A stretch of DNA of 64,000 bases, from the NCBI GenBank assembly GCA_019695115.1, contig JAIBAP010000014.1, positions 32,412 to 96,411 of the forward strand, given 5' to 3'. Positions within the stretch are counted from its first letter, which is position 1, and each line of letters opens with the position of its first letter. The translations under genes and the position numbers were made by a program. Below the pieces are notes generated by a model, which was not told where the DNA came from, made no database searches, and saw only the letters and a list, made by a program, of their open reading frames with translations. This stretch comes from Caldilineales bacterium. GTDB lineage: Bacteria; Chloroflexota; Anaerolineae; J102. Positions 3,851-7,911 of the stretch are shown piece by piece.

Positions 3851-4009
3851 GAAAGATATCACCACCGCTACCCGGCCCACATGCCCCGCATGGCCGCCAC
3901 TCAAGAAGGCGCATTACTTCCCTTTGGCACAAGCCGGATGTAGAATAGGGTGTTTGCGCGGTCAAACGCTGCCGCAAGCAAACCCCACTTCTTCAGCCAA
4001 GAGTCAACA

Positions 4010-4477
4010 ATGAAACTTTTCGAAGGGCTTCAGCAAGAACCGATCACCCATCTCGACCTGTCCTACTACTGCACCGCCCCCGCCGGCGCGCCCGTCAAGG
4101 ACGTCGTCGAGACCCTGCGCCAAAGCAAGCGCAACTGCTCGCTCATCCTCAAAGATGGCAAACTGATGGGCATCTTCACCGACCGCGACATCCTGCGCAA
4201 GGTTGTCGACCGGCCTGAGCTTTGGGAGCAAGCTATCGACCAGGTGATGACCAGGGAAGTGCTCACCATCGCCGAAAGCGCCACGGCCGCAGAAGCCATG
4301 GCGATCATGGATCGCTTTCACTTTCGCAATGTGCCGGTGGTGCGCGCCAACGGCGAGGTGGTGGGCAACTTCACCCACTACAGCATTGTCAAATTCCTGG
4401 CCGACACCTTCCCCACCGAAATCTACAACCGCGCTCCCGACCACACCCGCGTGGCCCGCCGGCAGCACGGCGGCTAA
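4010..4477 (+). CDS. CBS domain pair protein
   Basis: Two CBS-like modules are present (ILKDGKLMGIFTDRDILRKV and FRNVPVVRANGEVVGNFTHYSIVKF). The ATG at 4010 gives the start MKLFEGL. Confidence 0.75.
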   Translation: MKLFEGLQQEPITHLDLSYYCTAPAGAPVKDVVETLRQSKRNCSLILKDGKLMGIFTDRDILRKVVDRPELWEQAIDQVMTREVLTIAESATAAEAMAIMDRFHFRNVPVVRANGEVVGNFTHYSIVKFLADTFPTEIYNRAPDHTRVARRQHGG

Positions 4478-4495
4478 AGCCAGAGGCTCCCCCCC

Positions 4496-6358
4496 ATGAC
4501 GGAGAACAATCAACCCACCCAGATCAAAGAACTGGATCATGTCGTCATCCGCTTCGCCGGCGATTCTGGCGACGGCATGCAACTGACCGGCAGCCAGTTC
4601 ACCAACACCGCCGCCATCGTTGGCAACGACATCAGCACCCTGCCCGACTACCCTGCCGAAATCCGGGCGCCCGCCGGCACCCTGGCCGGGGTCAGCGGTT
4701 TTCAGGTGCACCTGTCGGACACCGACATCTACACCCCCGGCGACTCACCCGACGTGCTGATCGCCATGAACCCGGCGGCGCTCAAAGTCAGCCTGCCCGA
4801 TCTCGAGCCGGGCGCCAGCATCATCGTCAACACCGACGCTTTCAACACCGGCAACCTGGCCAAAGCGGGCTACACCCGGAATCCGCTCGAAGACGGCTCG
4901 CTGAAGAACTTCCAGGTCTACGAAGTGCCGATCACCACCCTCAACCGTAATGCCGTACAGGGTGTGGAGGGATTGAGCACCAAAGAAGTCGACCGCAGCC
5001 AGAACTTCTTCGCCCTGGGGCTGGTCTATTGGGCCTACGACCGGCCGCTGGACAACACCGCCGCCTGGGTGAGACAGCAATTCGGCAAACGGCCGGAGAT
5101 CGTTCAAGCCAACCTGCAGGCCTTGCAGGCGGGCTATTTCTATGGCGACACCACCGAAGCCTTCCAGGTGCGCTACCGCGTGCGCCCGGCCGCCCTGCCA
5201 TCGGGCACCTATCGCAAGATCAGCGGCAACGAGGCGACGGCAATCGGCCTGGTGACAGCCGCGGCCAAGGCGGGCAAGCCCCTGTTCTATGGCTCCTACC
5301 CCATCACTCCCGCCAGCGACATCCTCCATTTTCTGGCCGGCCTGCGTCATTTCGACGTCCTCACCTACCAGGCCGAGGATGAGATCGCGGCCATGGGCGC
5401 CACCATCGGCGCCGCCTTTGGCGGCGCCTTTGCCGTCACCGGCACCAGCGGCCCCGGCATCGCCCTCAAGAGCGAAGGCATCAACCTGGCTATCGTCCTG
5501 GAACTGCCCATGGTCATCGTCGATGTCCAACGCGGCGGCCCCAGCACCGGCCTGCCCACCAAAGTCGAACAGGCCGACCTCTTGCAAGTGATGTTCGGGC
5601 GCAACGGCGAAAGCCCCCTCCCCGTCCTGGCCCCGGCCACGCCTAGCGAATGCTTCGGCTTCGCCGTCGAGGCCTTCCGCCTGGCAGTGCGGGCCATGGT
5701 CCCGGTCATCCTGCTCACGGATGGTTATCTGGCCAACAGCGCCGAGCCGTGGTTGGTGCCCGACCCCGACGCCATCCCTCCCATCGTGGTCGAGCACCCA
5801 ACAGCCCCCAACGGCAACGGCAGATACCTGCCCTACAAGCGCGACCCGGTGAGCCTGGGCCGGCCCTGGGCCATCCCCGGCACACCCGGTCTCGAACACC
5901 GTGTAGGCGGGCTGGAGAAATCGCCCGATTTCGGCAACGTCTCCTATTCGCCCCAGGACCACCAGCGCATGATCAACGACCGCGCCGCCAAAGTTGCTCG
6001 CCTGGCCGATGTCATCCCCGAGCAGGATGTCTTCGGGCCGGAGGAGGGCAAACTGCTGGTGGTGGGATGGGGCAGTACCTACGGGGCCATCCACGCCGCC
6101 GTTGCCCAGGCGCAGGCCAGGGGCCAGTCGGTGGCGCACGCCCATGTGCGCTATCTCAACCCGTTCCCGCGCAACCTGGGCTACATCTTGCAGCGTTACG
6201 ACCGCATCCTGGTGCCCGAAATGAACATGGGCCAGCTCAGCCTGCTACTGCGCGGCCGTTTTGTCCGCGATGTCATCTCCCTGAACAAAGTTCAGGGCCG
6301 ACCTTTCAAAATCAGCGAGATCGCCAGCAAGATCGATGAACTGCTGGCAGGAGAATAA
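4496..6358 (+). CDS. korA: 2-oxoacid:ferredoxin oxidoreductase alpha subunit (KorA-like, 620 aa)
   Basis: The length and architecture fit a long OFOR alpha subunit (N-terminal gamma-like domain plus pyruvate-ferredoxin oxidoreductase core). It is immediately followed by a TPP-binding beta subunit. Substrate specificity (2-oxoglutarate versus another 2-oxoacid) cannot be decided from sequence alone. Confidence 0.85.
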
Positions 6359-6363
6359 ACCCC

Positions 6364-7911
6364 ATGGCACTTGCAGAAGCGATTCCCCTGGCCGCGGTCG
6401 CCCCCGTGCGCCTGACCCGCAAGGACTTCGTCTCCGATCAGACCGTCCGCTGGTGCCCCGGCTGCGGCGACTACGCCATCCTGGCCCAGATGCAGAAAGT
6501 TCTGCCCGACCTGGGCATCCCGCGCGAGAAGATCGTCTTCATCTCCGGCATCGGTTGCTCCAGCCGCTTTCCCTACTACATGGAAACCTACGGCGTCCAC
6601 AGCATCCACGGCCGGGCGCCCACCCTGGCCACCGGTCTCAAGGTCGCCAATCCCGAACTCAGCATCTGGGTGATCACCGGCGACGGCGACGGGCTTTCCA
6701 TCGGCGGCAATCACCTGGTGCACGCCTGCCGGCGCAACGTCGATATCAAGATCATCCTCTTCAACAACCGCATCTACGGCCTGACCAAAGGCCAATATTC
6801 GCCCACCTCGCCCCAGGGCCTGAAGACAAAGTCGTCGCCGATGGGCACGGTCGAGCAGCCACTCAACCCTCTCTCGGTCGCCCTGGCCTCCGAAGCCACC
6901 TTCATCGCCCGTACGATCGACGTCATGGGCGCCCACATGGCGGATGTGCTCACAGCCGCGGCCAAACACCGCGGCGCCGCCTTCGTCGAGATCTTCCAGA
7001 ACTGCGTCATCTTCAACGACAACACCTGGGAGCCATACAGCGAACGGCAAGTGCGCGACGACAACAACCTCTATCTCGAAAACGGCAAACCGATGCTCTT
7101 CGGCAAAAACAGCGATCGCGGCATCGTCATGGGCAAGACCGGGCTGGAGGTCGTCAGCCTGGGCGACCGCTACACCGTCGAGGATCTGACCATCCACGAC
7201 ACCTCGTCGGTCAGCCTGGCCTGGATGCTCAGCCGGCTGGAATACCCCATGCCCATCGGCGTCATCCTCGATGTCGCCAAACCCGTCTTTGGCGATGCCC
7301 TCTGGGGCCAGGTGGAACGGGCCAAAGCCGTCCGCGGCCAAGGCGATCTGCACAAGCTCTTCACCGCCTCGGATACCTGGGTGGTGGAAGACCGGCAGGA
7401 TGGCAGCAACGGCCACCATCAGGCGCGCGTCATCGGCGGCATGGACGCCAGCCTGGATGAAGAATATGTCGACCGCTTGTGGGATGGTGAAGGCCGCGGG
7501 AATGAATTGGAAGAGCGGCTGGCCGGGATGACCCTGGACGACATGCATCCTCGCGCCCCCATCCTGGTGGAGACCTCCGCCCGACTCGACCACGCCATCA
7601 GCCTGATGCAACAACACAACATCGGCTGCCTGCTCGTAACCAGCGCCGACCGCCACATCGCCGGCATCCTGACCGAGGGCGATGTGCTCAGCCGCATTGC
7701 CGGGCAAGTGCGCGACCTCCATAGCGTCACCGTGGGCGAATACATGACCCACCGCCCCACCCTGCTGGCTATGGACACACCGCTGGTCGAGGCCCTGCAC
7801 CTGATGTCCACCCACGGCTTCCGCCATCTCCCGATCGTCGATGTCAATCATCTGCCGGTAGGCGTCATCTCGGTGCGCGACGTGGTGCATTTCCTCTCGG
7901 CACAGATGTAA
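6364..7911 (+). CDS. korB: 2-oxoacid:ferredoxin oxidoreductase beta subunit (TPP-binding) fused to a C-terminal CBS domain pair
   Basis: The N-terminal roughly 340 aa carry TPP-binding beta-subunit motifs (CPGCGDYAIL, GIGCSSRFPYY, GDGDGLSIGGNHL). The C-terminal roughly 150 aa carry two CBS modules (IGCLLVTSADRHIAGILTEGDVL and FRHLPIVDVNHLPVGVISVRDVV). It is 515 aa against the usual 340-375 aa. Confidence 0.85.
   Translation: MALAEAIPLAAVAPVRLTRKDFVSDQTVRWCPGCGDYAILAQMQKVLPDLGIPREKIVFISGIGCSSRFPYYMETYGVHSIHGRAPTLATGLKVANPELSIWVITGDGDGLSIGGNHLVHACRRNVDIKIILFNNRIYGLTKGQYSPTSPQGLKTKSSPMGTVEQPLNPLSVALASEATFIARTIDVMGAHMADVLTAAAKHRGAAFVEIFQNCVIFNDNTWEPYSERQVRDDNNLYLENGKPMLFGKNSDRGIVMGKTGLEVVSLGDRYTVEDLTIHDTSSVSLAWMLSRLEYPMPIGVILDVAKPVFGDALWGQVERAKAVRGQGDLHKLFTASDTWVVEDRQDGSNGHHQARVIGGMDASLDEEYVDRLWDGEGRGNELEERLAGMTLDDMHPRAPILVETSARLDHAISLMQQHNIGCLLVTSADRHIAGILTEGDVLSRIAGQVRDLHSVTVGEYMTHRPTLLAMDTPLVEALHLMSTHGFRHLPIVDVNHLPVGVISVRDVVHFLSAQM

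Follow-up and report, generated by a model that had tools for sequence, protein, structure and literature searches.

A KorAB-type 2-oxoacid:ferredoxin oxidoreductase with a putative two-part CBS-domain sensor in a Caldilineales bacterium and its relatives

In this work, we analyzed a 64,000-nucleotide stretch of DNA from a Caldilineales bacterium (contig JAIBAP010000014.1; here referred to as the window) and describe a three-gene operon that encodes a 2-oxoacid:ferredoxin oxidoreductase (OFOR) of the two-subunit KorAB type together with two pairs of CBS domains. One pair lies in a small stand-alone protein, here referred to as CbsU, whose gene is located directly upstream of the α-subunit gene korA, and the other, the D-type pair, is fused to the C-terminus of the β subunit, KorB. 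We propose that the enzyme is equipped with a two-part CBS sensor, in which the U- and D-type pairs would form a joint disc, bind an adenylate ligand, and control the activity of the oxidoreductase; taken as a whole, and judged from sequence comparisons and structural models, we give this proposal a probability of roughly 55%. The same comparisons point to a new CBS-OFOR module with a conserved two-component design that recurs in several phyla and places a familiar fold on a new enzyme partner, although CBS fusions to enzymes are common and a new partner is not startling in itself. An original prediction, made from the letters of the window, had drawn attention to the two CBS-bearing genes. 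Three points were absent from it, namely, the derivation of the fusion from a four-gene module whose downstream CBS pair is a separate zinc-ribbon protein, the separation of the U and D pairs into distinct groups, and a joint four-CBS unit, in which the two pairs probably work together.

The catalytic part of the system has clear counterparts among known enzymes. KorA (620 amino acids; 4496..6358, + strand) matches the Pfam families POR, POR_N, and PFOR_II, with a γ-like domain III joined in one chain to domains I and II, scores 649.3 bits against the curated model TIGR03710 for 2-oxoacid:acceptor oxidoreductase α subunits (cutoff, 482.75), and has chain A of 6N2N as its best solved relative (2e-68). 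The fused β subunit, KorB::CbsD (515 amino acids; 6364..7911, + strand), was defined from Pfam, NCBIfam, and its homologues. Its catalytic core, residues 1 to 342 (6364..7389, +), contains a Pfam TPP_enzyme_C domain at residues 63 to 210 (1.7e-30) and passes the model TIGR02177 (PorB_KorB) with 265.3 bits against a cutoff of 261.9. Four cysteines assigned to one [4Fe-4S] cluster (C31, C34, C65, and C214) are invariant among 120 homologues, as is the thiamine pyrophosphate (TPP) motif, consisting of GDGDG at residues 106 to 110 and FNN at residues 133 to 135. The core was delimited by such invariant residues and by the ends of unfused KorB proteins: it closes with DTWVVE (residues 337 to 342), and unfused or split KorBs terminate 0 to 33 residues from the equivalent point. 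With both curated models passed and the catalytic motifs intact, the predicted enzyme is a KorAB-type two-subunit OFOR.

The gene for CbsU occupies positions 4010..4477 on the same strand. Only 18 nucleotides separate its stop codon from the start of korA, and 5 nucleotides separate korA from korB::cbsD. A terminator-like hairpin, recognized by reading the sequence and by its fold energy, lies 32 nucleotides past the korB::cbsD stop codon (7943..7978, +); it consists of a 12-bp G+C-rich stem and a 4-nucleotide loop, followed by UUUCUAUU, and has a fold energy of -29.1 kcal/mol (z-score, -3.6). In this layout, cbsU, korA, and korB::cbsD form a single compact three-gene operon, with the hairpin as its end. 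A consensus scan found no sigma-70 promoter upstream of cbsU, and no Rfam match that would indicate a leader RNA or riboswitch is present within positions 3400 to 8300.

Beyond the catalytic core, KorB continues with a linker of about 48 residues (residues 343 to 390; 7390..7533, +) and a D-type CBS pair of about 125 residues (residues 391 to 515; 7534..7908, +), as delimited from the AlphaFold2 (AF2) model, conservation, and Pfam. The original prediction, which had described a β subunit with a C-terminal CBS pair, is borne out by the profile search, in which the tail gives two Pfam CBS matches (3.4e-22; 79 bits against a cutoff of 24; best stretch, residues 457 to 512); the two modules thus stand, but the length of the extension is closer to 173 residues than to the 150 originally estimated. 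The AF2 model consists of two rigid, confident domains joined by the linker; the D-type pair has a predicted local distance difference test score (pLDDT) of >92, and the linker scores 46 to 56 with a short helix at residues 366 to 374. The linker contains the acidic helix motif LDEEYVD (7453..7473), and its residues D365, Y368, and D370 are nearly invariant among the 120 homologues. The pair contains the motifs GILTEGD (7663..7683), FRHLP (7819..7833), and GVISVRD (7861..7881), all on the + strand; G434, E438, D440, H488, and R505 are invariant, and T437, R487, G500, S503, and D506 are nearly so.

It is conceivable that such a fusion is an artefact of assembly or sequencing, in which a frameshift has joined korB to a downstream CBS gene. 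In other phyla, korB and the CBS pair are indeed separate, abutting genes, and in one metagenome contig (L127, 7589-9135) the reverse artefact can be seen, with a fused-type korB::CBS gene broken by a frameshift. This frameshift lies just 3' of the linker motif, there LDEEYID, and represents either a sequencing error or a pseudogene. Against an artefact in the window, however, the 120 best homologues from NCBI, JGI, ENA, and Logan assemblies (499 to 535 amino acids; 55 to 100% identity) all carry both Pfam domains, the identical 515-residue protein (P0001) is recorded on six contigs under the name "CBS domain-containing protein [Caldilineales bacterium]," and the linker has a conserved motif of its own and is devoid of the zinc ribbon with which the split genes begin (see below). 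A HMMER search of 1.84 billion cluster representatives, which returned about 1,360 KorB-like representatives at an E value of ≤1e-30, added more distant full-length fused proteins with 42 to 47% identity (P0121, P0122, P0125, and P0135). Since the fusion is conserved over close homologues and distant representatives alike, we take it to be real; the joining error that the original prediction had named as a possible refutation was effectively ruled out by this conservation, by the conserved residues of the junction, and by the ribbon-free linker, and we regard its probability as negligible. By these matches, β-CBS fusions are common in Anaerolineae-type Chloroflexota and uncommon among KorB proteins overall.

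CbsU is a protein of 155 amino acids with two Pfam CBS matches (7.7e-21; 74.6 bits against a cutoff of 24). The original prediction of a stand-alone CBS-pair gene upstream of the α-subunit gene was correct as to strand and the two CBS motifs, but the start had been placed at GTG 3950, from which the reading frame is formally open; because nearly all of 87 homologues are 155 residues long and begin with MxL, ATG 4010 is most likely the true start. The AF2 model (mean pLDDT, 88.6) shows a Bateman fold, and Foldseek places it among ordinary Bateman modules, with a probability of 1.00 to many CBS-pair structures. The first CBS unit contains a canonical G-h-h-T-x-x-D ribose-phosphate motif, GIFTDRD (4169..4189, +), in which every residue is invariant or nearly so among 84 homologues; most other lineages have GIFTERD at this place, and the glycine and final aspartate are invariant across phyla. 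The corresponding motif of the second unit, GNFTHYS (4364..4384, +), was recognized as degenerate by comparison with homologues and has no terminal aspartate; it is kept as G-N-x-T-H-Y-A/S within Chloroflexi and is variable across phyla. CbsU ends in a conserved tail of 22 residues of the type FPxxVYNLPPxPxxV...EGA/GG (4409..4474, +), a candidate KorAB-docking peptide. This tail has low pLDDT values when modelled alone (72, 58, and 44 in successive blocks), and across phyla it is kept only in KorAB-linked U proteins and is missing from a single-chain four-CBS relative (L141, described below).

The association of both CBS pairs with the enzyme extends well beyond the window. Six other fused loci were inspected, among them Candidatus Promineifilum breve and four of the distant representatives, and all six have a gene for a CBS protein of 154 to 180 amino acids directly 5' of korA. 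We then turned to a GTDB sample of 80 KorAB loci from species representatives among the matches listed, seeded by exact peptide patterns, to which the counts in the rest of this paragraph and those of the nine loci in the next refer. A downstream CBS gene is present in 9 of the 80 loci, a figure that depends on the exact peptide patterns and is not an estimate of prevalence. Eight of these nine also have an upstream CBS gene, and neither an upstream nor a downstream CBS gene occurs in any of the remaining 71 loci (Fisher's exact test, P = 3e-10). The nine loci come from Planctomycetota (five), a metagenome-assembled genome of Blastocatellia (Acidobacteriota), Thermoflexaceae, Spirochaetia, and Marinisomatota (one each). 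Gene content thus indicates that the fused or downstream CBS pair and the upstream CBS pair are evolutionarily coupled across phyla.

These loci also suggest how the fused gene came about. Each of the nine korB genes ends in a stop codon of its own and is followed by a separate open reading frame (ORF) for the CBS pair, whose ATG overlaps or abuts the korB stop. In eight of nine, the separate CBS protein begins with a zinc ribbon of the form CxxC...CxxC, with the start sequence MICPxCGHxNxxGxxxCxxC and weak Pfam matches to Zn_Ribbon_1 and DZR; the fused tails have no ribbon and carry the LDEEYVD linker in its place. A locus closely related to the clade of the window (L122) is of the true split form, with a ribbon, and its KorB and CBS pair are 64% and 47% identical, respectively, to those of the window. 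The ancestral order therefore appears to have been cbsU-korA-korB-cbsD, and the fusion in the window lineage appears to be derived from a merger of korB and cbsD with loss of the ribbon. Since the two are split in other loci and fused in the window, this is a Rosetta-stone event linking KorB to CbsD; we read it as a sign that CbsD binds to KorB and that the covalent tether would have made the ribbon unnecessary.

A complementary view was obtained from the CBS side. A metagenome scan was seeded with the Chloroflexi cbsU alignment (A2), as the cross-phylum alignment (A3) was too diverse to serve as a seed, and 71 loci with at least 300 nucleotides downstream of the match were counted. In 53 of them, korA begins 13 to 265 nucleotides past the cbsU homologue. 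In twelve of the 18 loci without a nearby korA, only part of cbsU is matched, at about 42% identity and without the tail; for L137 and L141, the two of these twelve that were looked at closely, the matching part forms the N-terminal half of an ORF with four CBS motifs in a single chain. The ORF in L141 is 282 residues long (5001-5849), its second half is D-like, and korAB is absent within 5 kb. A similar single-chain ORF is probably also present in L133-L138, L140, L142-L144, L147, L149, and L164; the neighbors of the 282-residue ORF are genes for the TRAP-transporter component DctM, a SnoaL-like protein, and aconitase X. In L165 (2293-3451), a U-type gene is followed by a zinc-ribbon D-type gene without korAB, adjoining a Ser/Thr kinase-TPR gene.

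In a neighbor-joining (NJ) tree of the CBS-pair cores, U and D form separate clades; the N-terminal half of the L141 protein is nested within the Chloroflexi U sequences (42% identity to CbsU), and its C-terminal half falls within D. The tree thus assigns the U and D pairs to two different orthologous groups. That a U half and a D half occur in one chain is a second event of the Rosetta-stone kind, this time joining U to D.

As to the ligand, the G-h-h-T/S-x-x-D ribose-phosphate motif is invariant or nearly so in U CBS1 (GIFT[D/E]RD), D CBS1 (GxxTExD), and D CBS2 (GxxSxRD), and it is degenerate in the fourth unit, U CBS2. A basic R-H/R-N pair on the strand neighboring the motifs is conserved as well. 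CBS structures indicate that such a motif pattern fits adenosine-phosphate ligands, and the γ subunit of mammalian AMP-activated protein kinase (AMPK) has three canonical sites and one degenerate site. Retention of the ribose-phosphate motif in three of four units thus favors adenosine-phosphate ligands. The module in the window has no single polypeptide with four CBS motifs such as γ-AMPK or MJ1225; the motifs are split two and two between CbsU and KorB.

We therefore envisage a sensor assembled from two chains. In this model, the D-type pair would be tethered to the C-terminus of KorB through the flexible linker, and the U-type protein would dock on the enzyme through its conserved C-terminal tail. 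The U and D pairs would then associate into a four-CBS disc like that of AMPK γ or MJ1225, anchored on KorAB, with a second anchor point provided by the zinc ribbon in split forms and by the covalent linker in fused ones. The low model confidence of the linker and of the U tail is what would be expected of segments that become ordered upon partner binding. The disc may bind an adenosine phosphate, with AMP, ADP, and ATP as the likeliest candidates, and a ligand-dependent movement of the disc may change oxidoreductase activity, either by allostery or by occluding access of coenzyme A (CoA) or ferredoxin to KorB. The domain architecture, the operon structure, the conservation of the fusion, the strict co-occurrence of the two CBS genes with korAB, and the split, fused, and single-chain variants are seen in the sequences; the pairing of U with D, the docking through tail, ribbon, or linker, the ligand, and the direction of the effect on activity are what we infer. 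Direct allosteric control by energy charge, as put forward in the original prediction, is plausible, and the conserved ribose-phosphate motifs and basic pairs speak for it. The more specific proposal, in which a heteromeric γ-AMPK-like adenylate sensor responds to energy charge by switching or gating the flow of electrons between 2-oxoacid/acyl-CoA and ferredoxin, is offered tentatively and at somewhat less than even odds.

Several observations weigh against this model. In an NJ tree, whose deep nodes are unreliable, CBS-linked KorBs are interspersed with unlinked ones according to taxon, which suggests that gain or loss of the association has occurred repeatedly and that it is an add-on with which the enzyme can dispense; this tree also led us to reject the idea that the CBS-linked KorBs form one clade, as only the fused group of Anaerolineae is monophyletic. 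A search for residues or indels present in at least 85% of one set and at most 15% of the other found none that separate CBS-linked from unlinked KorA or KorB, so that the sequences reveal no docking surface. Furthermore, four loci (L028, L162, L166, and L167) have one CBS gene after korB, with a U-type tail, so that the heterodimer would not be obligatory; a similar CBS gene is found at a contig edge in L163. The U:D disc itself is deduced from gene co-occurrence and the U-D fusion, the structural models being of single chains. Lastly, CBS motifs do not predict the ligand, and known CBS signals include S-adenosylmethionine (SAM), cyclic di-AMP (c-di-AMP), NAD(H), diadenosine tetraphosphate (Ap4A), and ionic strength.

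This last point leads to the alternative that the CBS module senses something other than an adenylate, be it CoA or succinyl-CoA, SAM, c-di-AMP, Ap4A, NAD(H), or ionic strength. CoA and succinyl-CoA, as substrate and product of the reaction, both contain 3'-phospho-ADP, the conserved motifs recognize only the adenosine ribose-phosphate moiety that is common to most such ligands, and the Foldseek matches include proteins for various ligands, namely, MJ0100 (SAM and methylthioadenosine), OpuCA (c-di-AMP), AcuB (Ap4A), and CBSX2 and PAE2072 (AMP). The conserved basic residues that adjoin the motifs (R505, R487, and H488 in D and R106 in U) point to a ligand with phosphate groups more than to SAM, but they give no preference within the phosphate-bearing group. 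We consider a different ligand unlikely overall. A somewhat more remote alternative, and one that we consider improbable, is that the pairs sense nothing and have a structural role in assembly, stability, or the protection of an exposed [4Fe-4S] cluster from oxygen. The module sits at the C-terminus of the cluster-binding subunit, the core sequences of CBS-linked and unlinked KorAB do not differ, and both Caldilineales and Planctomycetota include aerobes or facultative organisms; a precedent exists in the pyruvate:ferredoxin oxidoreductase (PFOR) of Desulfovibrio africanus, whose C-terminal extension stabilizes the enzyme in air. A structural role alone, however, would not need ligand-site motifs that are invariant over wide divergence, and two distinct CBS families have been retained together.

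It could also be argued that CbsU is an independent regulator, for instance, a transcription factor, that is merely cotranscribed with korAB. At JGI, one homologue (P0270) is named "predicted transcriptional regulator," and four-CBS and CBS-helix-turn-helix transcription factors exist, such as HhpR (PMC11705074) and CcpN, the latter being among the Foldseek matches. However, Pfam finds CBS domains alone in CbsU and no DNA-binding domain, its presence follows that of the downstream or fused CBS pair and not that of korAB generally, and a single-chain U-D fusion exists; an independent regulator is thus very improbable.

Some features of the surroundings are of note. When the ORFs of 36 loci were clustered all against all, no further neighbors conserved across phyla emerged; a LysR-type regulator lies downstream of the module in one Thermoflexaceae-like lineage. 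In one locus (L082), a glutamate dehydrogenase gene (ELFV_dehydrog; 4163-5413) overlaps the stop codon of the fused korB::CBS gene, which gives a weak hint that 2-oxoglutarate may be the substrate of this OFOR group. The window encodes a second OFOR on the - strand (18312-21007) that is distantly related (31 to 34% identity) and has no CBS domains; it consists of a 405-residue α subunit (POR_N and PFOR_II) and a 447-residue subunit in which a TPP-binding β domain is fused to a POR γ domain. Similarly, Ca. P. breve (LN890655.2, L085; 6812-9981) has a CBS-less korA/korB pair (675 and 348 amino acids) directly 3' of its CBS-linked korAB. The CBS-less copies in both genomes suggest that the CBS-linked enzyme has a specialized, conditional role.

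Downstream of the operon, an ORF for a major facilitator superfamily (MFS) transporter is listed at 7976-9310 with a TTG start that overlaps the U-tract of the hairpin (7971-7978); its true start is probably further 3', e.g., at the ATG near position 7985. Just 5' of cbsU and unrelated to the operon, positions 3721-3850 hold a heptanucleotide tandem array (CGTGAAG/CGTGAGG, 18.6 copies). Further heptanucleotide arrays are found at 10019-10100, 12517-12573, 12651-12730, 19672-19756, 46396-46450, 56258-56408, 57877-57988, 58011-58052, 59567-59610, and 61100-61133. They are intergenic, their units differ between sites (e.g., CGTGGTG, 11.7 copies, and GTGGCAG, 16 copies), and they resemble the cyanobacterial heptamers known as short tandemly repeated repetitive (STRR) sequences. 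An imperfect hexanucleotide array (GGGGTG, 34 copies, 65% matches) is located at 38582-38787.

OFORs operate where the oxidative and reductive tricarboxylic acid (TCA) cycles meet, and they determine how reduced the low-potential ferredoxin pool is. To our knowledge, they have been treated as unregulated at the protein level, redox and oxygen switches aside. If the model is correct, the enzyme described here would be the first case of allosteric regulation in the OFOR superfamily and would bring AMPK-type sensing to a bacterial TCA-cycle enzyme. The presence of the module in several phyla, including Planctomycetota as well as Chloroflexota of the kind abundant in activated sludge, may provide a handle for studying control of the OFOR step, and the split, fused, and single-chain variants would make a clean system for heteromeric Bateman assembly on a target. 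Since many of the β subunits are annotated only as "CBS domain-containing protein," a central metabolic enzyme is hidden behind this name.

Among known systems, the closest in the catalytic part are the KorAB-type OFORs of Magnetococcus marinus (2-oxoglutarate:ferredoxin oxidoreductase, 6N2N), Sulfolobus tokodaii (5B46), and Mycobacterium tuberculosis (KorAB), with matches of 2e-68 for α and 7e-58 to 7.5e-59 for β to the solved enzymes. They share with the Caldilineales enzyme the α domains III, I, and II, the TPP motif and four cysteines of β, one [4Fe-4S] cluster, and the lack of a δ ferredoxin subunit. Solved β subunits, however, have 273 to 305 amino acids and neither CBS domains nor CBS partners, whereas the β subunit described here has 515 and is co-encoded with a CBS protein. 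No CBS match, and no CBS-containing chain among the hits, was found for the solved OFOR relatives 5B46/47/48, 6N2N/O, 8YS5/6, 1YD7, 9BT4, 6CIN, and 5C4I, and full-text literature searches for CBS or Bateman domains in connection with such oxidoreductases turned up no account of an association between the two; candidate matches were set aside, as "CBS" was used there in unrelated senses. The statement in the original prediction that this is not the textbook organization of KorAB thus agrees both with the solved relatives retrieved by sequence search and with the literature. CBS proteins in the recently deposited multichain structures 9ZNF, 9ZNG, and 9ZNI (chains 4 to 7), 9SR9-9SRF, and 9T7H (chain H) are among the better matches to CbsU and the KorB tail, and these entries hold no KorA- or KorB-like content.

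A C-terminal addition to an OFOR has a parallel in domain VII of the D. africanus PFOR, a short disulfide-switch peptide that modulates an enzyme of another subfamily. That extension is a peptide and not a ligand-binding fold as found here. CBS pairs inserted into a catalytic subunit give allosteric control by adenine or guanine nucleotides in CBS-pyrophosphatase (CBS-PPase; PMC11172384) and IMP dehydrogenase (IMPDH), the latter being inhibited through GTP/GDP binding to its Bateman domain (PMC4660370). The pair is covalently attached in these enzymes as it is here; the two pairs in their dimers are identical and come from the same gene, whereas the module described here includes a second, different CBS-pair gene. 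In architecture, CbsU resembles the plant proteins CBSX1 and CBSX2, which act on thioredoxins, and AcuB, all small proteins with one CBS pair, in some cases with a short extension, that bind adenine nucleotides; by their PDB titles, AMP is present in CBSX2 and AMP, ADP, ATP, and Ap4A are present in AcuB. CBSX1/2 and AcuB modulate their partner enzymes in trans. CbsU differs from them in its partners, in its own conserved C-terminal tail, and in having a dedicated D-type partner. Of the solved structures, the four-CBS protein MJ1225 matches CbsU and the L141 protein best and comes third for the D-type tail, after 3ddj. The proposed module is like MJ1225 and AMPK γ in comprising four CBS motifs in total. 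In MJ1225 and AMPK γ, however, these motifs lie in one chain, whereas here they lie on two polypeptides, one of which is fused to the catalytic subunit, and the regulated enzyme, a kinase in the case of AMPK, would here be an oxidoreductase.

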